This document shows, piece by piece, positions 5,071 to 46,000 of a stretch of 64,000 nucleotides of DNA. The notes beneath the pieces are model-generated. The model was not told where the DNA came from, did not search any database, and saw only the letters and a program-made list of their open reading frames with translations. Position 1 is the first letter of the stretch. Each line of letters starts with the position of its first letter. The translations under genes and the position numbers were made by a program. The stretch spans positions 384,001-448,000 of the forward strand of contig CM000430.1 of assembly GCA_000165345.1 (NCBI GenBank). Reading direction: 5' to 3'.

Positions 5071-6078
5071 TTAGCCACTTAATATCGGCTTAGCTTCCTT
5101 TTGATGCAAAACTTCTACTGACTTGTTATTTTCCAATCTTACTTTAAAATCCTTTATAGTTTCCTTGATTCCTGTTTTAATATCTACCGTTGGTTTCCAA
5201 TTTAAGATTCTAATTGCTCTGGAAATATCAGGTTGTCTTTTTTTAGGATCATCCATTGGAAACTTTCTGTGCGATATTTTTAAATTAGGGTCAACAAGTT
5301 CACGAATTATTTCGCCTAGTTCTAATATCGAGATTTCATTAGGATTTCCTAAATTAATTGGCATGTTGTCTAAAATCTTCTCCCTATCTAATTTCATTAG
5401 TTTATAGAGCCCATCAACCATATCAGTAATATAACAGAAACTCCTTGTCTGCGTTCCGTCCCCATAAATAGGCAATTCTTGATTGAGCAGTGATGAGAGA
5501 ATAAAGTTTGAGACTACCCTACCATCATTAAACAGCATTTTAGGACCATATGTATTAAAGATTCGAGCTATTCTTACATCAACACCATGATTTCTATAAT
5601 ATTCCATACAGAGAGTTTCCGCGATTCGTTTCCCCTCATCATAACAGCTTCTGGTTCCAACCGTGTTTACGTTTCCGTAATAAGATTCATTTTGGGGATG
5701 AACTAATGGGTCACCATAAATTTCTGATGTAGAAGCAAATACAACTTTTGAGTTTGTTCTTTTGGCTAACCCTAAAATATTCATAGTTCCAATAAAGCAT
5801 GTCTTTAACGTGTAGATCGGATCCTTTTGATAGTGAATGGGAGATGCCGGGCATGCAAGGTGATAGATTTCTTTGACTTCTAGCTTGATACTATCAATAA
5901 TATCGTGTCGAATAATTTCTAGCCTAGGGTTTTCTCTACACTGGCCAATATTAATCACATCCCCACTGAAGAAGTTATCCAGAGCAAGGACATAATAGCC
6001 CTTACTCAACAGATACTCAACTAGATGAGAGCCAATAAACCCAGAGGCTCCAGTTACAAGAACAGTAATATCTGACAT
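5071..6078 (-). CDS. UXS: UDP-glucuronate decarboxylase / UDP-xylose synthase-like NAD-dependent epimerase-dehydratase
   Basis: 335-aa intronless ORF. VLVTGASGFIGSHLV is the Rossmann GxxGxxG motif. LDNFFSG, YHLACPASP, KTCFIGTMNILGLAKR, YDEGKRIAETLCMEY (catalytic YxxxK), VRIARIFNTYGP and NDGRVVSNFI align closely with the UXS1 family. Confidence 0.85.
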   Translation of the reverse strand: MSDITVLVTGASGFIGSHLVEYLLSKGYYVLALDNFFSGDVINIGQCRENPRLEIIRHDIIDSIKLEVKEIYHLACPASPIHYQKDPIYTLKTCFIGTMNILGLAKRTNSKVVFASTSEIYGDPLVHPQNESYYGNVNTVGTRSCYDEGKRIAETLCMEYYRNHGVDVRIARIFNTYGPKMLFNDGRVVSNFILSSLLNQELPIYGDGTQTRSFCYITDMVDGLYKLMKLDREKILDNMPINLGNPNEISILELGEIIRELVDPNLKISHRKFPMDDPKKRQPDISRAIRILNWKPTVDIKTGIKETIKDFKVRLENNKSVEVLHQKEAKPILSG

Positions 6079-6146
6079 TTTTCTTTGTATTTAAATTTGG
6101 AATTTGAAAATAACTCTCCCAGAGCAAAAAAAATGGGAAATCAAAT

Positions 6147-6231
6147 AGCGCGCGCCCTCACCCACATGATACCATAGCGCCATAGGCGGCAAAATGTGTG
6201 TAGAGTGTGTGGGTATCTTTCGCGTTTCCCC
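6147..6231. promoter_or_regulatory. Cluster of GC-rich motifs in the divergent UXS / MORN promoter (AGCGCGCGCCC, AGCGCCATAGGCGGCAAAAT, TTTCGCGTTTCCCC)
   Basis: Three GC islands within 85 bp in an otherwise AT-rich intergenic region. GCGCCAT and GGCGGCAA recur in other promoters in the window. TTTCGCG is E2F-like. Confidence 0.4.
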
Positions 6232-6430
6232 ACATGTCGAAAAATTGTAATATTCAACTTTGTAGAACAATTTCAAGTAATATAAACTTTGAGTGGTGAG
6301 ACTTTTTCATCTGTAACCATAAATCATTTCTACTTCCCAGATTTTAAAGTTCTTATCACCATTCACAAGCTATTGAATATAAATAAGGTAACATTCTGAG
6401 TGAATTATTGATTGACTTGCATAATTTAAT

Positions 6431-8035
6431 ATGGGAGGTTGTAAATCAAAGGCCGATAAGCATATTGAAAATAGGGAGATTCCACAAGCCCCAGAATTGA
6501 GAGTTGAAAAACGGCCTTTAGTTGAACTTCAGGATAAGATTACATACGAGGGTGAATGGTTAGGGGACAATAAACATGGATATGGAATTCAGAAGTGGCC
6601 AGATGGTGCCGTTTTTGAGGGAAACTTTGTCAATGGAACAGCAAACGGATACGGAGTATTCATTCATACTGATGGCGATAAATATGAGGGCGAATGGCAG
6701 AATGATAGAGCTCATGGCCATGGCACATATACGCACTCTGATGGAAGTAAATATGTAGGCGAATGGAAAAATGACAAAAAACATGGTAGGGCTATTGAGA
6801 GCTGGGTTGATGGTAGTAATTTTGAAGGAAGTTATGCATATGGCCTTAAACAAGGTTTTGGGAAATTTTCATGGCATGATGGTTCAAAGTATATTGGTAA
6901 CTTCGACGCAAACCAAATTAATGGCTTTGGAATCTATCATTGGAATGATGGGAGAGTATATACGGGCTATTGGCTAAAAAATCATATGTTTGGTTATGGC
7001 AAATTTGATTGGACCGATCATAGATGCTATGAAGGACAATACATAAATGATAAAAAAGATGGTGATGGCAAGTTTACATGGCCAGACGGTCGAGCATATA
7101 TTGGTCAATGGAAGAATGGAAAACAACATGGAATTGGTATATTTTATAATATTAAAAAGGAAGGTAAGGTTGGAGAATGGAGAGATGGAAGTAGGTTGAG
7201 GTGGATAAAATCTTCTCTAGAGAATGGCGAGTTGGTCGGGGAGGGTTTGAGTTTAAGAGAAGAATATTCTAAGCAAAGGGAAGAGCTTTTGAAAGCAAAT
7301 GATTTGTATGAAAACTATAGAAAACTTCCAAAGAATGATTTGGAGCTCCAGCAAATGAGGATATTACAAAAATTCGATGAGTACCTACTCACTTTGAGTG
7401 ACTCAGAAAAGAGTTTGGAATCAAATAAACAAGCCGCATCAGATACTTTGGTAGATTCTAATAATATTGTTACACAATTGAAGAATAACGATTCTGCCCT
7501 TGAAAACAAACATCAGGAAATGGAGAACGCTGATGGCGGAAATGAGCAGTTGAATACGGAAAGTTTGCAGATAGAAGAAACAAAAAATGAACAAGAAAAT
7601 TGTGGTGGTTCAGAGAATGTTGTTGAATATACTGCTGACTTAAGCCTTGTTGAGGAAAGCAGTGACAAAGAGGAAAAGCCTATTAGCGCCCCTCTCATAC
7701 AAGAAGACGCTCAAATCAATACAGAATTAGTGGATCAAGTTCAGGTAGACAGTAACAAAGATCGTGGGATGACTGGTGGAAATTCTGCTTTAGACTTATT
7801 AGACTGTTCTGAGAATAAAGGAGAGATCTTGGAAAATTCTGGTGCAGATAGTTCTGACTCAAAATTGGATAACTTGGAGGTTAAACCTTGTAATAATGAA
7901 GATATACAAATATCGGAACAAGAGATCAAAGGAGATTTAGTAGAAAATATAGGTTCAGAATTGAAAGCTAATTCACTGACTGAAAAGGAATTGGAAGATA
8001 TAGCTGAAAATAAAGGGTTAGAAGATTCAAAATAG
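6431..8035 (+). CDS. MORN-repeat protein with an N-terminal dual-acylation motif and an acidic C-terminal tail
   Basis: Begins MGGCKSK (Gly2 / Cys4 / Ser6). There are about 10 tandem MORN repeats (YEGEWLGDNKHGYG, FEGNFVNGTANGYG, YEGEWQNDRAHGHG, YVGEWKNDKKHGRA ... YIGQWKNGKQHGIG). A roughly 260-aa Glu/Asp/Ser-rich tail follows. Confidence 0.85.
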   Translation: MGGCKSKADKHIENREIPQAPELRVEKRPLVELQDKITYEGEWLGDNKHGYGIQKWPDGAVFEGNFVNGTANGYGVFIHTDGDKYEGEWQNDRAHGHGTYTHSDGSKYVGEWKNDKKHGRAIESWVDGSNFEGSYAYGLKQGFGKFSWHDGSKYIGNFDANQINGFGIYHWNDGRVYTGYWLKNHMFGYGKFDWTDHRCYEGQYINDKKDGDGKFTWPDGRAYIGQWKNGKQHGIGIFYNIKKEGKVGEWRDGSRLRWIKSSLENGELVGEGLSLREEYSKQREELLKANDLYENYRKLPKNDLELQQMRILQKFDEYLLTLSDSEKSLESNKQAASDTLVDSNNIVTQLKNNDSALENKHQEMENADGGNEQLNTESLQIEETKNEQENCGGSENVVEYTADLSLVEESSDKEEKPISAPLIQEDAQINTELVDQVQVDSNKDRGMTGGNSALDLLDCSENKGEILENSGADSSDSKLDNLEVKPCNNEDIQISEQEIKGDLVENIGSELKANSLTEKELEDIAENKGLEDSK

Positions 8036-8208: not shown

Positions 8209-11200
8209 ATGTCATTTCATATTGAACAGAAGTCACTATCGTTTGAGTTGTGGGAATACTTCTATAATGACGGAGATGAAAGGCTCATTTCTAGTGATTG
8301 TTTTCAACAATCTACCGAAAACAAGTATTCTAGGCTTGTATTTGCACTTGTATCACTTTTGAATGGTAAAGATATGAAACAAAATTACTTAAAGGATTTC
8401 CACCTGGAAAAAAGTACAGCAGAGCTATATGAGATTTGTAAATACGATACTTTTTCAACAAAAAATTCAGATGATAAATGTATTTTCAATTTATTCAGCA
8501 AGCTCAAACAACATGTTGGCGATTTAAATACATGTTTTGTTGGAATAAATGAGTTCGAGTCTTTAATCAATTTTCCAGAAATTAATGAGAAATACATAGT
8601 ATATTTAATATTTTGGGTTGTAGTTAAATTTTTTGAAAGTATAAAGATTGTTGAAAGTGATAGAGAATTTAATCAAATTGTCACTTGTTATTTGAATTTA
8701 GCATACAATATTGATCATTTAATTTGGGATTTAATTGTATCAGATTATATACTTTCATTAAGAAAAAAAGGAATTATTGATGTTAATTCAATTACTATCG
8801 AGTTGAATGACGAAGTAGAATCACTTTTTTTTTTATTAGTGAGCCCATATAGTATTTGTCCGACTTTATGCAGCTTATTCTTATTGTTAAAATCAAAAGT
8901 AATCAGAAGCAGGTTTAAATATATTAATGAAAATTGCTTCTTTGTTTCAGTTATAAATCAAATTGTTAAATTGATCGCAAATACTTTGAAGGAGATTAGC
9001 CCAGATATGGCAGAGCTTTCTTTTACAATAACTGTATGCAGAATGATTTCAAATATATCGTACGATTTTAATAATGAGCTAATTCAGCAACTATATCTAT
9101 TAAGGGATTACCAAAAATGCATGATTCCAGGTTTAAAGAGAATAAATCCAATATTTGTCGACAGGTTCATTTTATATAGTTTCATTTCAATTGAACAATT
9201 TTGGATAAAAATTTCTAAGGATGAAGGATTTTTTTCATCAATAATAAACCACATTCCTCCATTAGAACTTTCAACTTCAATTATATCTCTCATGAATCCA
9301 TATAAAGAATTTTCCAAATACATAGTTATTTTAATTGTTCTTTTCTCATTGAATAATCAATTATCTAATACAGGTAATGTAAGTAAACACGCGATAGAGA
9401 TTATGAAAAAGTTAGTAGAAAATCCCAAAGAGCCTGTTGAAATACTATTAAAATATTTTCTATTCCCAGATTATACAAGAGATTCAAGCGCAAAATCAAA
9501 TTTATATATATTTTTCAGACTTTTATCAAATAATATTTGCAATTCTTCAGTTTCCTTGGGCATAGTGAAAAGCATCTGCAACTTGATTCAAATACACTAT
9601 TTTCCATTATCTGAAACATTTCTTTACAATTATTTGGAATCATTCCCCAAATTAGTTAAATTATGTAATGTAGACAAAGAAACCTCTAGATTTGATGATG
9701 AAATAAAATTAAATCTCTTGAGCTTAATGAATTTTGAAGGATGTATACTAATAGATGAAATGTACTGGCTTAATTCGAGCCTTGTACATGTATTATTAAA
9801 TGAGATTAATATTGAGTTTGAACATATTTTGCCATTTATTCATTCCATTTCTTTAAGTATAATGAATATACAATCTACCATAAACAATCAAATTTTTGCT
9901 AACTATGGTTATCCAATTAATAAAGTTAAAACTTCACAAAATAAAAGCAATTTCAAGGTTAATGAATTACATTGCCAGAAAATCATTAAATCTTCAAATT
10001 TTTTATTTAAAACGAAAAATATTGACATTATAATAATATTAATATTAGACCACATATCCGATTGGATTAAAAAGAATGATAAATGTATTTCTTTTGAATG
10101 GTTATTAAAGCAATCAACCTTATTCATTAATTTGAATATAAATAATGAATATGTGCAAGGATACTTCTCAATATTTTTTATTTATTTGTTTTCAAGAATA
10201 ATTGAAGCAGATAAATTAGATAGAAAGTTAATAACAATAAACTTTCATATTATCCCCTGGAAGGGGATATTAAGGTGGATTGATTCTTGGGAGGGAGTAT
10301 TTCTTCAGAGTGTATTAAACCCTAGAACCTGGAGGGTGATATTCTCTGAAATTACTGCAATAATTATCCCAGAATCTCTTATAATACCATCAATTCCAAA
10401 CAGTTTTTCTGAGATTCAGTCTCAGTATTTTTCTCTGAGTAATGTAAATCCTTTTAAAGAAAAAATAAATTTATGGTTAAAGGATCGTAAGAGTTTGTTA
10501 GAATCTCTAAAAAGTAAAGTAACAACATTAGGAAGCGTTAAGTCTACGTTAAAATGGCTTGAAATGTTTTATTTTGAACCAAATATGGCAGTTTATTTTA
10601 CACTAGAATGCATTTTTATACGCGAATCAGTTTATGTTAAAGAACAGCACTTTCAAGAATTATACTTTGAGATATGTTCAAATGAAGCAAAACTTAGAGA
10701 ATTTATTACAAATCCTGATACATATATCAAAAATATTAGTAACTATCTATCTGAAGAGAGTTCAATTGAAATAATTTGCAATATTTCGCTTATAATGCTT
10801 TATTTTCATGAAGTAATAAAACACAAAAACCCTATTATTAACCATTTTCAGAGTGTGGATTTTGATATTTTTTGTATTATCTGGAACAAATATGTAAATT
10901 ATAGTAGAACCGAAAGTCAATTAACAAGTAGACAGATTTCAATATTTTTTTCCAACATTTTCTGTAGAAATACAAATATTGCTCAGCAAATTGTAGAACA
11001 AGGATTTCAATATAAAAGTCTCAATAATCGTATTGATTTCAATGTTTATCTCGAAAGAACACGCTCATTTATTGATAGAATTTGCTATATTACACCACAA
11101 ATACTCTGTGAGCATACTATTCTACCAAAAATAGCAAATAAGTTGGACAAACTGCTGAATACAAGATCACTTATTGAATTGTGGGGAAAATACAACGTAA

Positions 11201-11631
11201 CCGATAGTAAAGTATTTTGTTTAGATTTTAAAATAGAAAACCAAATAATTCAGTGTGTTTCATTATTATCATGGCTCTCAAACATAATTATCTCCCCATC
11301 AAAGTCAGCCCATTATTCATCAGAAAGTTCTTCGAATGAAAAGTCAGCATTTTTACCTGTTGCAGAGAGATCTGTTGTTAGAGTTCTATGTATAACTCAG
11401 GATATAATAAATTCCAAACTTGATAGCCGAATTTACCACAATTTAATCATCAATTTTAACATCTTATTAAAACACTCTGCGCACTTTATTATTTCAGTAG
11501 CAAACTCATTTCCGCAACTAAATAAGGCATTAAAAGATACACTATCTGCATTAAAGCAATTTATGAGCGGCCACCCATTATCAAATTCTTCAATTCACCA
11601 CACTATTAATAACATTGATGAGATACTTTAA
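8209..11631 (+). CDS. Large hypothetical protein (1140 aa), Ile/Leu/Asn-rich, probably alpha-helical solenoid
   Basis: Single uninterrupted 3.4-kb ORF in 70%-AT DNA with ATG at 8209. No catalytic motif was recognised. Confidence 0.6.
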   Translation: MSFHIEQKSLSFELWEYFYNDGDERLISSDCFQQSTENKYSRLVFALVSLLNGKDMKQNYLKDFHLEKSTAELYEICKYDTFSTKNSDDKCIFNLFSKLKQHVGDLNTCFVGINEFESLINFPEINEKYIVYLIFWVVVKFFESIKIVESDREFNQIVTCYLNLAYNIDHLIWDLIVSDYILSLRKKGIIDVNSITIELNDEVESLFFLLVSPYSICPTLCSLFLLLKSKVIRSRFKYINENCFFVSVINQIVKLIANTLKEISPDMAELSFTITVCRMISNISYDFNNELIQQLYLLRDYQKCMIPGLKRINPIFVDRFILYSFISIEQFWIKISKDEGFFSSIINHIPPLELSTSIISLMNPYKEFSKYIVILIVLFSLNNQLSNTGNVSKHAIEIMKKLVENPKEPVEILLKYFLFPDYTRDSSAKSNLYIFFRLLSNNICNSSVSLGIVKSICNLIQIHYFPLSETFLYNYLESFPKLVKLCNVDKETSRFDDEIKLNLLSLMNFEGCILIDEMYWLNSSLVHVLLNEINIEFEHILPFIHSISLSIMNIQSTINNQIFANYGYPINKVKTSQNKSNFKVNELHCQKIIKSSNFLFKTKNIDIIIILILDHISDWIKKNDKCISFEWLLKQSTLFINLNINNEYVQGYFSIFFIYLFSRIIEADKLDRKLITINFHIIPWKGILRWIDSWEGVFLQSVLNPRTWRVIFSEITAIIIPESLIIPSIPNSFSEIQSQYFSLSNVNPFKEKINLWLKDRKSLLESLKSKVTTLGSVKSTLKWLEMFYFEPNMAVYFTLECIFIRESVYVKEQHFQELYFEICSNEAKLREFITNPDTYIKNISNYLSEESSIEIICNISLIMLYFHEVIKHKNPIINHFQSVDFDIFCIIWNKYVNYSRTESQLTSRQISIFFSNIFCRNTNIAQQIVEQGFQYKSLNNRIDFNVYLERTRSFIDRICYITPQILCEHTILPKIANKLDKLLNTRSLIELWGKYNVTDSKVFCLDFKIENQIIQCVSLLSWLSNIIISPSKSAHYSSESSSNEKSAFLPVAERSVVRVLCITQDIINSKLDSRIYHNLIINFNILLKHSAHFIISVANSFPQLNKALKDTLSALKQFMSGHPLSNSSIHHTINNIDEIL

Positions 11632-11831
11632 CAAAAGCGAATGGCGGTAATTTCAGCGCCTACTTTTTCTTAATGGTAATGTGTTGTTAGTTCTTTTTAT
11701 ACTCGATGATTTTGGGCAATGACCAAGCTTATTCTTCATAATTCAAGATTGTGTGCGTTATTTTTAAGATACCAAAATATTCTTTGAAGGTTTTGCTAGT
11801 CTGTGGGTTTTACAAATACAGGAACTTATAA

Positions 11832-12329
11832 ATGAGGAAAAAAAAGAGTTCTTCACATTTAAATAACGAAAACTCCATAGTAGAAAATATTGAACGGCTT
11901 CCTTCTCTTGGGAAGGTTCCCGAGCATGAAGGAGCAATTTTGATGAGTTCAGAAATTTCGAAAAGTATGAAGCGTTCTTCTTCTCAAATCACAGATGAAT
12001 TGGCTATCTCTTCTTTATTAAGTAATGCGAAGTTTACATTATCTGTTATAAAGATTGGTGGTAATACAAAGACCAAATATGAAAAAAATACTCATGGCTT
12101 TATCGTTGTTCATATTTTATCATGTAAAGCAGATTCCCTAATTTATTCACTGGATAACAAATACGAATTTGTAATGTCGAATGGAAGCTATGTGCATATT
12201 CCTCCTAACCATTTCTTCTCCTTCAAAAATTTATCTAATGAGTCTGCAAAGATATCTTTCGTTGTACTTCCAAAGAGAATTAGGGAAGTTGGTAGTGAAC
12301 CTGCATTTCATCGTCCTATTGTTGACTAA
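11832..12329 (+). CDS. Small protein with a cupin-like C-terminal domain resembling the CENP-C/Mif2 cupin
   Basis: 165-aa ORF. The C-terminal segment THGFIVVHILSCKADSLIYSLDNKYEFVMSNGSYVHIPPNHFFSFKNLSNESAKISFVVLP follows the beta-strand pattern of the CENP-C/Mif2 dimerisation cupin (G.xF.VP..N.Y...N.S...AKLFF). The N-terminus is Ser/Lys-rich and disordered. No CENP-C motif is present. Confidence 0.45.
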   Translation: MRKKKSSSHLNNENSIVENIERLPSLGKVPEHEGAILMSSEISKSMKRSSSQITDELAISSLLSNAKFTLSVIKIGGNTKTKYEKNTHGFIVVHILSCKADSLIYSLDNKYEFVMSNGSYVHIPPNHFFSFKNLSNESAKISFVVLPKRIREVGSEPAFHRPIVD

Positions 12330-13246: not shown

Positions 13247-13953
<707 letters not shown>

Positions 13954-14179: not shown

Positions 14180-16159
14180 ATGGACAGAAATGGTTGGAGT
14201 GAATATTTGAAGAAGCAAAGACTTCAGGACTTAAAATCCTTAGCAAAACAACTTGGTATTTACATTAAATCCAATACAAAAAAAAGTGATTGTATCGACA
14301 TCATTCTGAATAATTCCCCTGACACTCCTCTAAGTTCCAATAATCTTGATTTTATACTTAAAGAAAAAATATCAAATGATCAACACAATTTTCCTTCTGA
14401 AACATCAATTTTGTCCAATATTAGTGAGTCAACTAATTTAAATAACATTAAAATAAGTGAGTATTTTCATACTGCTTCGGATACTATTTGCGATTCATCT
14501 TGTTCCATGTGCCAAAAAAACCTTTCCGATAGTATAGTTAACTGCGATGCTTGTTACAGACCATTTCACTCTCGCTGTGTAGGTTTTGATATCAAAAGAG
14601 CTGAATTCAATAATAATCATATGATGGTTTTCATGGAAAGTATATCAAAAAAAGATGGCAAAAAATCCAAGGCTAATTTAATTAATTTTATTTGCCCGTT
14701 TTGTAGATTCTTTGTAATCGACCCATATAACAAAATAATCAAGCCACTTTTTTTTACGACTTTTTATTCTTACACAGCAATTCACAATATACATCCAAAG
14801 TATGGAAACATTAACTTTAATAACTCAAGCCATCTTCCTCACTTTACATCTAAGTATTCTTTCTCTCCAAATCTATTTTTGAATAATGATTTAGAATCTA
14901 ATGACCCGGATGCTTTCAATATTATGGTTTATTGTCTAAGACTTGATAGAATGGATCTTAATCATGAGTTCCCAAGAGTCCTATTTATTAAAGCTAATGG
15001 AAAGGTTATTCAAAACATTGAATCTCCGAGCTACGATCATATTAGAAGAGATTGTCCATTATATTTGAAGGATTATTTAGTTAATAATCAATTGATGACA
15101 AAGCAAAATGTCAATATTACGTTTAGCACATTAAATGCACTACTTAAAGACTCAGAAAATGGTGAGTTGTTGCCTATTCCTACGGCACCGTATATAATTG
15201 GCTTGTTTTTAACCAAAACAATAAGTTGCGATAATATTTTGGATACTATACTTTCTGAAGGCACATTATCCATTGAAATTTCAAAAGCTCACTTCAAAAA
15301 TATTTTAGAAAATAAGATCCAATCATCTATATATAACCAATTATATGATGACTCATCAGATGAGATAATCTGCTTGAATAAAGACCAGTATTTAAATACC
15401 TTATGCCCTTTAACTATGGATACCATTGAACTTCCTGGACGTGGCATATTTTGCCATCATATAAACTGTTTTGATATTAAAGCTTTTATTCAAATTAACT
15501 CTACAATTAAGGCATTTAACACCAGATGGAAATGCCCCTTATGTTACCAAATAATTAGACCAGGCATGCTCAAAATAGACAGCTTTGTCAAGATGATTAT
15601 TAAAAACCCCACTATACCCAGAGAAAACAATAAAATTCTGATAAATTCTGAAATTTTTGATCGAATTAAACAAAATGAAGATATACCCAGAGAAATGCTT
15701 TTAAAAACCTCGAATTCAATTAAATACGAGTTTCCAAAGGCCAACTCGTTAAATTCGCCAATTAACGAGCATCTAACTATAATAAAAGAAAAATCTTCTC
15801 AAAATTCAGATTTATCCTTGTCAAACAATATTAAAGATTGTTTTGATTTTCAAAACGAGGTAATTGACATATCTGATGATGATGATGAAAATGAGATGAT
15901 AGATGATCGTTTTATAGTTAACGATGATGAGCTCAATTCTTTGTTCAGCAACTCTGACTACATAGATATAAATAATGGAAATGCGAATTGTTCTGAACAA
16001 AGCAAAGAAACAGTATTTCAAAATTATAGCGAAGACTCAATTCTTCTAGATAATAAAAAAAAAAGAAAAGTTTCAGAGGGCCAATTTCTTAGTCAAAGTT
16101 CTGGAAGGCTAGAAAACACTTCTAATGGTGACAAGACATCGATTTCACTTAGATTATAG
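14180..16159 (+). CDS. PIAS/Siz-type SUMO E3 ligase (SAP - PHD-like - SP-RING/MIZ - acidic SIM)
   Basis: N-terminal SAP motif (LQDLKSLAKQLGIYIKSNTKKSDCIDIIL). PHD-like Cys cluster (CSMCQKN...CDACYRPFHSRCVGFD). SP-RING (LCPLTMDTIELPGRGIFCHHINCFDIKAFIQIN...WKCPLCYQII). C-terminal VIDISDDDDENEMIDD hydrophobic-acidic SIM-like stretch. Confidence 0.8.
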   Translation: MDRNGWSEYLKKQRLQDLKSLAKQLGIYIKSNTKKSDCIDIILNNSPDTPLSSNNLDFILKEKISNDQHNFPSETSILSNISESTNLNNIKISEYFHTASDTICDSSCSMCQKNLSDSIVNCDACYRPFHSRCVGFDIKRAEFNNNHMMVFMESISKKDGKKSKANLINFICPFCRFFVIDPYNKIIKPLFFTTFYSYTAIHNIHPKYGNINFNNSSHLPHFTSKYSFSPNLFLNNDLESNDPDAFNIMVYCLRLDRMDLNHEFPRVLFIKANGKVIQNIESPSYDHIRRDCPLYLKDYLVNNQLMTKQNVNITFSTLNALLKDSENGELLPIPTAPYIIGLFLTKTISCDNILDTILSEGTLSIEISKAHFKNILENKIQSSIYNQLYDDSSDEIICLNKDQYLNTLCPLTMDTIELPGRGIFCHHINCFDIKAFIQINSTIKAFNTRWKCPLCYQIIRPGMLKIDSFVKMIIKNPTIPRENNKILINSEIFDRIKQNEDIPREMLLKTSNSIKYEFPKANSLNSPINEHLTIIKEKSSQNSDLSLSNNIKDCFDFQNEVIDISDDDDENEMIDDRFIVNDDELNSLFSNSDYIDINNGNANCSEQSKETVFQNYSEDSILLDNKKKRKVSEGQFLSQSSGRLENTSNGDKTSISLRL

Positions 16160-41588: not shown

Positions 41589-42155
41589 TTATTTATAGAG
41601 TTCTGCATCAGCAGCAAAGTATGCAGCATTTTGCAAAGTACTTTTTAATGATACTGCTACTTGGTCAGAGTTCACTTTTGGATTTGTAACAGCTTGTGCG
41701 AGAGCCTGCTCATCTACATAAGCTGCACTTCCCGGAGTATTTGCTTCTTTTTGATAGCTTGCCGAGAGGCTTTCTATATCTAATATTGGCTGAGGTGAGG
41801 TTATAATTATCGGAACTTTTGGGCCAGTATTTCCAAAAAATGGCAACTCCCCTAAGCCTGATAATGGCCCATAACCAATTGAAAGCGCTATTGTATCTCT
41901 TCCGTGCCTCACTACAGTTGGAGCTGAACCACTTGATTGATTGTTTTTGTCTGTTATTGGGTCTCCAAATCTCGTTTTCCCTAATGCAGTATTTGATGAT
42001 AGTTCCTTTACCATTTCTTCAAGTGTTGCTTGCTGTTCGAGAAATGTTGAATATAAAGCTCTGTTTCCCAATAAATTCACTCTAATTGACCCAATGTAAC
42101 CGCATCCCATAAAGAGGAATATTAATCCAAAAAATAATCTATAATATTTATGCAT
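41589..42155 (-). CDS. Small secreted protein (signal peptide), paralog 2
   Basis: 188 aa. The N-terminal hydrophobic segment LFFGLIFLFMGCGYIGS looks like a signal peptide. Weak collinear similarity to paralog 1 (LEQQATLEEMVKELSSN versus LELRQSILQHEKELENL; VPIIITSPQPILDIESLSAS versus VPSINPIPLVVIRPDALTNLLSSLSA). Confidence 0.5.
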   Translation of the reverse strand: MHKYYRLFFGLIFLFMGCGYIGSIRVNLLGNRALYSTFLEQQATLEEMVKELSSNTALGKTRFGDPITDKNNQSSGSAPTVVRHGRDTIALSIGYGPLSGLGELPFFGNTGPKVPIIITSPQPILDIESLSASYQKEANTPGSAAYVDEQALAQAVTNPKVNSDQVAVSLKSTLQNAAYFAADAELYK

Positions 42156-42575
42156 TTTGTCTTAAAAAATGAATAATTCAAATAATATTATACTCAAGAA
42201 TTAAAATCCTATGTTCAATTTAAACAATATTGCTAGAACTTCCTGAAATAGGAAAAATGGCTGCATGCGGAAACAGATTGCATGAATAAAAATACATGTA
42301 AAACGATACTTGTCACAAGTGACATTCATACCGCCATGTGTACGCATGATGACCGCCGAGTGTACATGTGGCTGAATTTACAGGTAGATCATTGTGGGGT
42401 CATTTTTACGCCAGTAAATTCAAATAATTTATAATTTATGTGGAAAAAAATATTGCCAGTTATTACAATAAAGTATTTTTAAAAAATATAATAAAAAGTT
42501 GTATATCGCACAAATTCGTAAGTTTGAAAACATGAAGGAGTAGTTAGGCAATTTATTACATTTTAGAAATTGAAA

Positions 42576-42863
42576 ATGACTCAAAACATCAAAACTAAGA
42601 AAGCTACTAAGGTATCAAAGAAAGAAGCAAAAAAAAATAAACCTAAGAGAGCAATGACTGCGTTTATGTATTTTGCTAGCAGTAGAAGAGCAGAGATTAC
42701 AGCAGCAAATCCAAGTTTGAGGTCGCAAGTTGCTGAAGTTGCTAAGATTCTTGGTGAGGAGTGGAGAGGGATGAGTGAATCAGATAAGGCACCATTCCAG
42801 AAGCAGGCAGATGCAGACAAGAAAAGATACGAACGAGAAAAGGCACAAATGGCAGGACAGTAG
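42576..42863 (+). CDS. HMG-box (HMGB-type) chromatin protein
   Basis: ATG at 42576 (the track M at 42570 is TTG). A basic N-terminal stretch is followed by a single HMG box PKRAMTAFMYFASSRRAEITAANPSLRSQVAEVAKILGEEWRGMSESDKAPFQKQADADKKRYEREKAQ. Confidence 0.8.
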   Translation: MTQNIKTKKATKVSKKEAKKNKPKRAMTAFMYFASSRRAEITAANPSLRSQVAEVAKILGEEWRGMSESDKAPFQKQADADKKRYEREKAQMAGQ

Positions 42864-43030
42864 AAGTATTCGAGTCGTAATCATATCTACTGCAAATTAG
42901 TTTTAACTTATTCCCTACCTCGACTGATTTACGAAACTATACCTGAGTGGAGGGAAATTATGATAAAGGAACCTAGGCCCAATAAAAGTATTATTAGTTC
43001 TCCACTAATCTGTTCATTGTTAAAATCTAA

Positions 43031-46000
43031 TCATTTAGTTTTGTTCCATGGCCCCTCTTCTACTCCAGGACAGATCGACTGTGCCATGTGCAGGTTGTTT
43101 TGTGAAATATATTTTGACGTATGGAGATTGCTTGCAGCCTTGTTTGAGAGCTCACTGGCTATTGGTTCTATTGTTTCGCCTTGACCTGTAGGATTGTTTA
43201 ACATTCCCGAATTAGATTTCATTTGTAGTATAATCGGCCCAATATCTGGAAGCGACGAGAGTAGACTTCCATCACGATAGCGCAGATTAAGTAGGCCGTT
43301 CAGAGTTACAAACGCAGTTTTCAGAAATGACTCATTTACGCCAAATGTGCACGTTTCTCTAACCAACTCCGCGTAATTTTGCACATGCTTAAGCATCTCA
43401 TAGTACTCTGATTGTTGCTCATGAAGTGTTCTGAAATAAAAGTTTGCAGCAGCCCCATCAAATTGTATAGGCCCAGGGTTGCAAAAGCGGTCTTGCATTG
43501 CCCAATGTTCCTGAACGATTTTTAACCAACGATATGCTTTACCTTTCAGATCCACTTCACTAGAAGGAATTGTAGGAATGTTGCTTGGGAGTTCAGGATG
43601 GGTCTCATCGTTGGAAGGAACAATTTTCATTAGGCAATTAAATGGTATTGCTGTCATTCTCCAATCGGAAACATCGCCGCACAACCCTCTAATAGAACAA
43701 AGATGGCCTGTTAGTCCGCTCTCAACAACTATCGAAGCAAAATGCCCAAGCGCATACCCTAGCTTTGCATCAAACTGTGATGGCATAGCAGATCTACCCT
43801 GATATCCAAAAAAGTGTGTAAACGGCTGAAAATTGCCATTATATTTATTATCTTGTTTTCTTTTCTTAAGCTCCTTTTTTATCATTAAAACAAGAAGTGC
43901 CTCGGTCTCTATCGCGGAAAATGCAGAGTCAACATCTAATGAAAGTATTTCTCTTCTAATGAACCTAGGTAATGACTTAAATAATGCGAGACTCCAGGGA
44001 GTCATTTTAGAAGAGTATTTACTTCCATCAAAGCTATCTGTAGGGCTATGTTCCTGATTCGCAGCCGAACTTTTGTTATCAGCCACATCTACGCGAGAGC
44101 TTTTTTCTTGGCTATTTGTGTGATCGGACAATGTGGGGTGATCGCTGTGTCCCAAACTCATCATTTCAGACATAAATAATTTCATCTCGGAATGTTCTTC
44201 AGCGAATCTTCGTAATTCATTTATTTCAGAAATTAAAATCTTCATATCTGGTAAATGTGAAAGTAATGCATCTGGAATGAGTACAGTTCCGAAGTTCTTT
44301 CCAAACTCCGCTCTCTTACATATTACATCTGCCACATCTTCTACGATGTGAACAAGAGTTTTATCAGCTGCTCCATATTCTTCAGCAATTATTACAACAT
44401 TTGGATGTGTCTGTAGTGCGCACTCCAGAACTTCATTTGAAGGTTGCCTTCCCATTAATCTAATAAAATGCCAATATTTAGGCATTGAAGCAGCATCCGT
44501 TAATACATTTCCAATTAAGCTTGCATACAATTTAGTGCTTGAATCAAACCCTACGCATGCCTCTACTAGATCATTTGCTAAGTTGTTAGACGCAGTTGCT
44601 GGGACGCCAACAACCTTAGTATTACAGTTATTTTGTAGAAAATACTCTGCCAAGATTGCGCCCTGGGTCATTCCAAATGCAGAGCCACACAATACAAGGC
44701 CATCCAAATGTAAACTTTCACAAACCTTTCTAGCCTTTTCCAAATTCTCTTTCGAAACTAAACACTCTGTATACGTTCTTCCAATTAATTCCGATCCTCC
44801 TTGATTTGGCAAAAGATCTACATCTTTCTCAGTAAGTGTAATATGCTTCCCTTGCAAAAATCCTTTAACTCCATAAAAGCCCAAACATCTTCCCCTTACC
44901 ATTTTCAGACGGTGGTATAGTCCCCATACCACATTTGCAATTCCAGGTGCTTGTCTAGACATAAGCAATACTCCTATTCTCAACCCTACATTGGGCTCTT
45001 CAGATGAAATGTCAAGTTGCGCTTCTTGGCAATAAAAGTGATTTGAATTACATAAATGAGGATAACAGGTTGTAATCTGTCTTTTTATCAGAGGATCAGA
45101 TAAATTATATTGAGTAGTCGGTTTACATCTTGCTTTAAGGTGGGTAAGTAGCAGTGGCAACGGAGGTCTATATGTTGTGCGATAAAGTTGGAGAGAGGAG
45201 AGGGTTCCCTGAATTCTATTAAATACACCTCTTTTCCCTCCCCCATTATTTGGTTGTACAATATTTATATCAGTATCTGTAACTGAGGCATCCTCTCCGC
45301 ATAATAAATCTTGTAACTCCGGCGTTCTTACAATATAAGGGATAGTTTCAGAGCATGGGCCTTCGAATTGTAAAGGTCCAGGCGCCCTATATAAATCTTG
45401 AAACTTCCAAATATCTCGAACCTGTTTTAATAGTTTGAAAAGTGGCCCATTCAAATCGACTAACTGACGAGTAACTGCAGCATAGCACTGACCGTCTTGT
45501 CTGGATTTTTTAACTTCCATAATTCTAGTAATACTTATACCGCATGCTTGCCAACTAAGAGGATTCCCTTCTAATCCTCTTATAACTGCCAAGTAACCAT
45601 TCATACCTTTATAAACCAACGCTCCTGCGCAATGGCCCAGTGCGTAACAATAGTTAGAATCAAAATTAGATGGCATGGCGCATCTTCCTTCATAACCCAA
45701 ATAATGATGCATCATTGTAAATCCAAAAGGCATCAGTATTGAGCCATTTGACTTATTTGAAATTTCTACCTGATCTGAAATTGTTTCCTTGGTTTGGCCA
45801 TGTTCAAAATCATAATAGAAAGATGTTCCATGCCTCCTATGTAACTCTGCTTCAACAAGTAGTATAAGTAATCTCTCTGTTGCTATTTTTGCAACTTGTA
45901 TTTGGCCAGTAGCCTCTCTATCAAGTAACAATTGCTCTCTAATATTTTCTGGAAGGTACTCCCAAATTTTTGCAGAAGACTCCGAAAGACAACTGCATAT

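Follow-up and report, generated by a model that had tools for sequence, protein, structure and literature searches.

CENP-C paralogues are part of the apicomplexan rebuilding of the inner kinetochore. Brusini et al. 2022 (PMC9418836) recognized three CENP-C-family proteins in Plasmodium and two in Toxoplasma. AKiT9 (PBANKA_1307000, represented in Toxoplasma by the C-terminal part of TGME49_209880) and AKiT10 (PBANKA_0406000, the second cupin-bearing CENP-C paralogue in Plasmodium) are CENP-C-like cupins that carry no CENP-C motif; both localize to the kinetochore, in the CCAN layer (constitutive centromere-associated network), and each copurifies with the other and with histones H3/H4 (PMC9418836). 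The origin of AKiT9 predates the myzozoan ancestor, and the coccidian AKiT9 proteins are short (PMC9418836). Here, we examined a 165-amino-acid protein of Cryptosporidium parvum encoded at 11832..12329 on the forward strand of a 64,000-nucleotide window (assembly GCA_000165345.1, contig CM000430.1, positions 384,001 to 448,000; all coordinates below are those of the window). Compared by class features rather than with the AKiT9 sequence itself, and with AKiT9 localized to the kinetochore in Plasmodium only, the protein appears to fit the AKiT9/AKiT10 class of cupin-only CENP-C paralogues in every feature compared. To our knowledge, there is no experimental study of Cryptosporidium kinetochores.

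The likeness to AKiT9 has several parts. Both proteins have a cupin homologous to that of CENP-C, both lack the CENP-C motif, and both occur in a genome that also encodes a canonical CENP-C. The short Cryptosporidium family, for its part, may go back at least to the ancestor of Cryptosporidium and gregarines, which share its architecture, and it is not especially close to the C. parvum CENP-C. AKiT10 shares the CENP-C-like cupin without a CENP-C motif and itself lies in the CCAN layer, beside AKiT9; an AKiT10 orthologue in Cryptosporidium or gregarines is less expected.

The original prediction, made from the DNA letters, had proposed a stand-alone 165-residue open reading frame (ORF) with a C-terminal CENP-C/Mif2-type cupin. 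Its coordinates, strand, and length were exact, and the peptide that it quoted corresponds to residues 87 to 147. The ORF is a real and complete single-exon coding sequence with an ATG start and a TAA stop, and it encodes the same protein as C. parvum Iowa II EAK88794.1. The same sequence is listed in the CenpC.fa file of van Hooff et al. 2017 as Cryptosporidium_parvum_CPAI003201_CenpC, and its UniRef name is “Mif2/CENP-C cupin domain-containing protein.” The membership of the protein in the CENP-C group is thus real and already known, since the exact protein stands in a 2017 CENP-C orthologue set, carries a cupin name in UniRef, and is of a class for which experiments were published in 2022; the novelty that had been implied is not supported.

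Near-identical proteins are present in C. hominis, C. tyzzeri, and C. meleagridis, and eleven more clusters in the genus contain orthologues of 162 to 166 residues, the identity falling to 67% in C. bovis. When 1.8 billion representatives were searched exhaustively, two further homologues emerged, real but distant and of matching layout, P0014 (178 residues, from the transcriptome of the gregarine Polyplicarium) and P0015 (262 residues). Three bacterial repeat proteins returned by this search (P0012, P0013, and P0016) were discarded as spurious matches driven by repeats and composition. Word-indexed profile searches, including one with a trimmed profile and with E values up to 10, found relatives in Cryptosporidium and gregarines only. 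These searches end at the gregarines and reached no sequence link to the Plasmodium or Toxoplasma AKiT9.

Matches found with the single sequence in Pfam, NCBIfam, and the PDB were all below threshold and ambiguous. The Pfam family CENP-C_C (PF11699) matched residues 67 to 144 over profile positions 11 to 84 of 85 with 15.6 bits (E = 0.019), short of its gathering score of 29 bits. Below-threshold matches to this family were also found in 10 of the 12 Cryptosporidium orthologues (best E = 0.0056) and in the gregarine protein P0014 (21.3 bits). In the PDB, the chicken CENP-C chain 7x85 was matched with an E value of 0.36.

Profile comparison gave a far clearer result. We built an independent alignment of 25 CENP-C cupins from animals, fungi, stramenopiles, alveolates, and one rhizarian, from which the 165-residue protein was left out. 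The sequences came from the van Hooff et al. 2017 FASTA deposit; because they were copied manually out of the supplement's text, isolated typing errors may occur. Aligned against this set by hhalign, the short family matched over residues 36 to 149 with a probability of 98.0% and an E value of 2.5e-13, a resemblance far beyond chance; with N-terminally extended CENP-C sequences, the match covered residues 38 to 147 (98.1%, E = 1.1e-13). The CENP-C profile itself scored the 165-residue protein at 36.2 bits (E = 1.2e-10), with nearly the whole profile covered, and a gregarine homologue at 44.4 bits. For calibration, solved CENP-C/Mif2/Cnp3 chains scored 66 to 124 bits and fly CENP-C scored 25.7 bits, while generic cupins reached up to 38.9 bits in partial matches. 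Run over the 473 stop-to-stop segments of the window, the same profile identified the ORF at 11832..12329 as the only cupin, all other segments scoring no more than 7.1 bits.

The reverse test pointed the same way, and more cleanly. A profile made from the 12 Cryptosporidium orthologues and the two gregarine homologues was run against all 177,635 distinct PDB sequences at E ≤ 10 and returned four matches: two to Mif2 and one each to Cnp3 and chicken CENP-C. Generic cupins were not among them. A profile from the 12 Cryptosporidium orthologues alone had found nothing useful in the PDB, as it was too shallow, and adding the two gregarine homologues fixed this. The predicted signature end of the CENP-C cupin is present as well, with GSYVHIPPNHFFSFKNLSNESAKISF read against the consensus GxxFxVPxGNxYxIxNxSxxxAxLxF; F129 occupies the position where Tyr is near-invariant, and N133 is the invariant Asn. 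By structure as well as by profile, the protein matches the CENP-C family best. Generic cupins come close behind among the structural neighbors, so structure alone is not decisive. We conclude that the 165-residue protein very probably belongs to the CENP-C cupin family.

The protein differs from canonical CENP-C in several respects. Compared with canonical CENP-C/Mif2/Cnp3 (PF11699; structures 7x85, 2vpv, 6o2d, and 6o2k; and CPAI001009 of C. parvum), it shares the pre-cupin plus cupin module and the G..P..(Y/F)...N..S...A.L.F signature, and metal ligands are absent in both. It differs in lacking the CENP-C motif, in its size (165 residues compared with 874 in CPAI001009), and in having only 66 residues before the barrel, without the long N-terminal region for possible Mis12-complex- or CCAN-binding sites. 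The CENP-C motif, which binds the CENP-A nucleosome, was searched for as R-x-S-x-R-x4-P-x2-[YF]-W or an apicomplexan variant, and the regular-expression tests were negative for the members of the short family, none of which contains a single tryptophan. In the controls, the pattern matched three motifs (human, S. pombe, and Bigelowiella) and missed the variant motifs of two apicomplexans; Trp was present in all five. Since every control motif has this Trp and the short family has none, the motif cannot be present there, in agreement with its predicted absence.

A full-length CENP-C is found elsewhere in the genome. C. parvum has a second entry in CenpC.fa of van Hooff et al. 2017, the 874-residue CPAI001009, in which we found a CENP-C motif, RRYPKRLRTAPLKWYLGERLEY, and a C-terminal cupin of its own. 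No canonical CENP-C lies within the window, where the ORF at 11832..12329 is the sole cupin. With CPAI001009 providing both motif and cupin, the 165-residue protein is therefore a cupin-only paralogue. The original prediction had offered three readings, and the one of a paralogous cupin adaptor is the only one to survive.

Conservation along the protein was measured as invariant columns and mean pairwise identity over 12 Cryptosporidium species. Residues 1 to 12 (11832..11867, forward strand) form a variable, basic, Lys/Ser-rich N-terminal tail, MRKKKSSSHLNN, with 25% invariant columns, 50% Ser plus Lys, and a predicted local distance difference test (pLDDT) score below 50; a putative nuclear localization signal in this tail is only an inference. 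Residues 13 to 37 (11868..11942, forward strand) hold a family-specific motif, ENSIVENIERLPSLGKVPEHEGAIL, in which 72% of the columns are invariant and the mean pairwise identity is 91%. This is the most conserved segment of the protein, ahead of the barrel at 57% invariant columns, and five of its residues (P24, V29, P30, A35, and L37) are invariant in the gregarine homologues too. It falls outside the region that hhalign aligns to CENP-C, and profile alignment detected no counterpart of it in canonical CENP-C. AlphaFold 2 modeled a helix at residues 16 to 22 with modest confidence. We also considered whether VPEHEGAILM (residues 29 to 38) corresponds to DPETREIILM just upstream of the cupin in human CENP-C. 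This was rejected after the CENP-C alignment had been rebuilt with N-terminal extensions and realigned, since the hhalign match starts at residue 38.

Residues 38 to 66 (11943..12029, forward strand) are the pre-cupin region, which aligns to the CENP-C stretch preceding the barrel (the hhalign matches start at residue 36 or 38). Here, AlphaFold 2 modeled a helix at residues 39 to 47 and beta-strands at residues 51 to 54 and 57 to 64, with a mean pLDDT of 50 to 77 per 10-residue block over residues 31 to 70. The CENP-C-type cupin beta-barrel itself spans residues 67 to 148 (12030..12275, forward strand), and the pre-cupin plus cupin module has a mean pairwise identity of 84 to 85% across the genus. 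The variable C-terminal tail, residues 149 to 165 (12276..12326, forward strand), has 24% invariant columns and a pLDDT below 50, and a small E-P-A-F patch at residues 156 to 159 is conserved within Cryptosporidium. Everything upstream of the cupin had been predicted to be a short Ser/Lys-rich disordered region. This description suits residues 1 to 12 but is inaccurate beyond them, because residues 13 to 37 are the most conserved of all and residues 38 to 66 align with the CENP-C pre-cupin, within which residues 51 to 64 are modeled as two beta-strands. That the segment at residues 13 to 37 is the most conserved part of the protein, rather than a disordered linker, is a small new point.

Our preferred reading is that the protein is a stand-alone, CENP-C-derived pre-cupin plus cupin paralogue and that it probably functions at the kinetochore. 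By analogy with the cupins of CENP-C and with AKiT9/AKiT10, it would be a nonenzymatic subunit of the inner kinetochore, within the CCAN, whose barrel may form homodimers or pair with a second cupin of the CENP-C family. It would sit in the centromere-proximal layer without binding the CENP-A nucleosome directly, and residues 13 to 37 could serve as the docking site for a partner protein. The published assignment to the CENP-C group is upheld here by independent tests, and the role is clarified as that of a short cupin-only paralogue, not a CENP-A-binding CENP-C. Residues 13 to 37 offer a possible handle for mutation or bait in C. parvum tagging work. The value of these results is modest and practical, and they open no new question.

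Two other readings are unlikely but deserve weight. In the first, which we regard as doubtful, a CENP-C-derived cupin has left the kinetochore and become a small dimeric adaptor in the nucleus or cytoplasm, with residues 13 to 37 recruiting a non-kinetochore partner. Several observations would suit this: the most conserved segment is the very one without a CENP-C counterpart, sequence searches trace the short family no further than Cryptosporidium and gregarines, and the flanking genes for a Rab6-like GTPase and a PIAS-like SUMO ligase offer no kinetochore context. Against it, the cupin-only paralogues that have been tested, AKiT9 and AKiT10 of Plasmodium, sit at kinetochores (PMC9418836), and the CENP-C-type module is under strong constraint, as seen in its identity across the genus.

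The second, to which we likewise give only a small chance, keeps the kinetochore but not AKiT9. Here, the family would be a separate, lineage-specific CENP-C offshoot in Cryptosporidium and gregarines, with residues 13 to 37 as its docking motif. If true, a docking motif not described before would underlie an inner kinetochore of distinct architecture in these early-branching apicomplexans.

We next consider three readings with very little left in their favor. The ORF had also been suggested to be the 3' exon of a larger spliced gene, which could, for instance, continue the 1,140-residue ORF upstream. That ORF lies on the same strand, 200 bases away, and Cryptosporidium has some introns, one of them in the adjoining Rab gene. 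Cupin-only entries can also be split gene models. In the van Hooff CenpC.fa, Mortierella verticillata MVER012462 (CENP-C motif, no cupin) is consecutive with MVER012463 (170 residues, cupin only), and the pair looks like one gene divided by annotation. As cupin-only entries in orthologue sets can thus be artifacts, we checked the gene model of the 165-residue ORF.

An in-frame TAA stop (11829..11831, forward strand) abuts the start codon on its 5' side, and no open frame crosses the 200-base spacer to the preceding ORF, where all three frames hold stops. In C. andersoni, an in-frame stop lies four codons 5' of the ATG. Compared with that species, the coding sequence is 71% identical, whereas the 200 bases upstream are 50% identical, against 49% for a shuffled control. 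The C. andersoni counterpart is a separate ORF of 162 residues in a conserved gene order (large protein without a Pfam match, cupin, Rab, zf-MIZ protein). All 12 Cryptosporidium orthologues have 162 to 166 residues and start as M[RK]KK or MKKK, with Lys/Arg residues after the Met, and the transcript-derived Polyplicarium homologue is of similar size (178 residues) and matching layout. With stops upstream, an unconserved spacer, a separate gene in C. andersoni, and a gregarine homologue known from a transcript, a hidden 5' exon is unlikely, and the protein appears to be encoded by its own independent gene; as part of a larger spliced gene, the ORF is highly improbable.

That the protein is an ordinary metal-dependent enzyme of the cupin fold, with no connection to kinetochores, is about as hard to credit. 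The best single Pfam match is in fact Cupin_2 (PF07883; E = 0.0034, 17.5 bits), which is matched in all 12 Cryptosporidium members (best E = 0.00015), and NCBIfam gives weak matches to ureidoglycine aminohydrolase; generic cupins are also close structural neighbors. All of these Pfam and NCBIfam matches are, however, below threshold and partial, with Cupin_2 falling under its 27.2-bit cutoff and covering residues 104 to 144 only. Classical metal-binding cupins (PF07883, e.g., TM1459 and the phosphomannose isomerase 7zvy) share with the protein the double-stranded beta-helix and the motif-2 G(X)5P...N scaffold, which is kept as G118..P124..N133. We tested 16 family members for the classical motif 1, G(X)5HXH(X)3-4E(X)6G, and motif 2, G(X)5PXG(X)2H(X)3N, and both were absent in all 16. 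The protein lacks the HxH...E of motif 1 and the His of motif 2; at the latter position stands Phe in Cryptosporidium (Phe129) and Tyr in the gregarines, and canonical CENP-C cupins also have Tyr. No classical metal-binding cupin was detected in the PDB by the short-family profile, which matched CENP-C-family chains only, and hhalign to CENP-C gave 98%. The cupin lacks the metal ligands and appears to be of a nonenzymatic type. The original prediction would have fallen had no cupin matched, or had the match been to an enzyme family that binds metal; what we found instead was a CENP-C-type cupin with no conserved set of metal-binding His residues.

The remaining reading, an extremely reduced protein serving as the only CENP-C of the parasite, might draw on its place in a published CENP-C orthologue set and on the streamlined kinetochores of apicomplexans, but it fails on the 874-residue CPAI001009 in that same set, on the tryptophan-free sequence that makes a CENP-A-binding motif impossible, and on the short-family profile, which scores CPAI001009 (23.5 bits) below a stramenopile CENP-C (31.8 bits) and so suggests that the short protein is not a recent copy of it, leaving this reading with hardly any probability.

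The cupin gene has no functionally related neighbors. Upstream, the forward-strand ORF at 8209..11631 encodes a large uncharacterized protein of 1,140 residues with no Pfam match at E ≤ 0.01. In C. andersoni its counterpart (L001 1016..4570), a gene for 1,184 residues, lies directly 5' of the cupin gene; the protein is at least genus wide. Downstream, 13247..13953 (forward strand) holds a gene for a Rab6-like small GTPase (Ras family, E = 8.5e-43) that is split by a single GT-AG intron of 47 bases (13383..13429). The last residues of exon 1 are ...YQATI, followed by the initial base of a Gly codon, and the reading resumes in exon 2 with GIDFLSKT...; the region does, therefore, contain spliced genes. 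At 14180..16159 (forward strand) follows a gene for a 659-residue protein with a PHD finger and a MIZ/SP-RING zinc finger, a PIAS-like SUMO E3 ligase, whose position is kept in C. andersoni. The window as a whole has about 30% G+C and long ORFs. Two parts stand out from this background: 6001..8000, with a G+C fraction of 0.37, a strong GC skew (+0.26), and an AT skew (+0.15), and 42001..46000, with a G+C fraction of 0.37 to 0.385.
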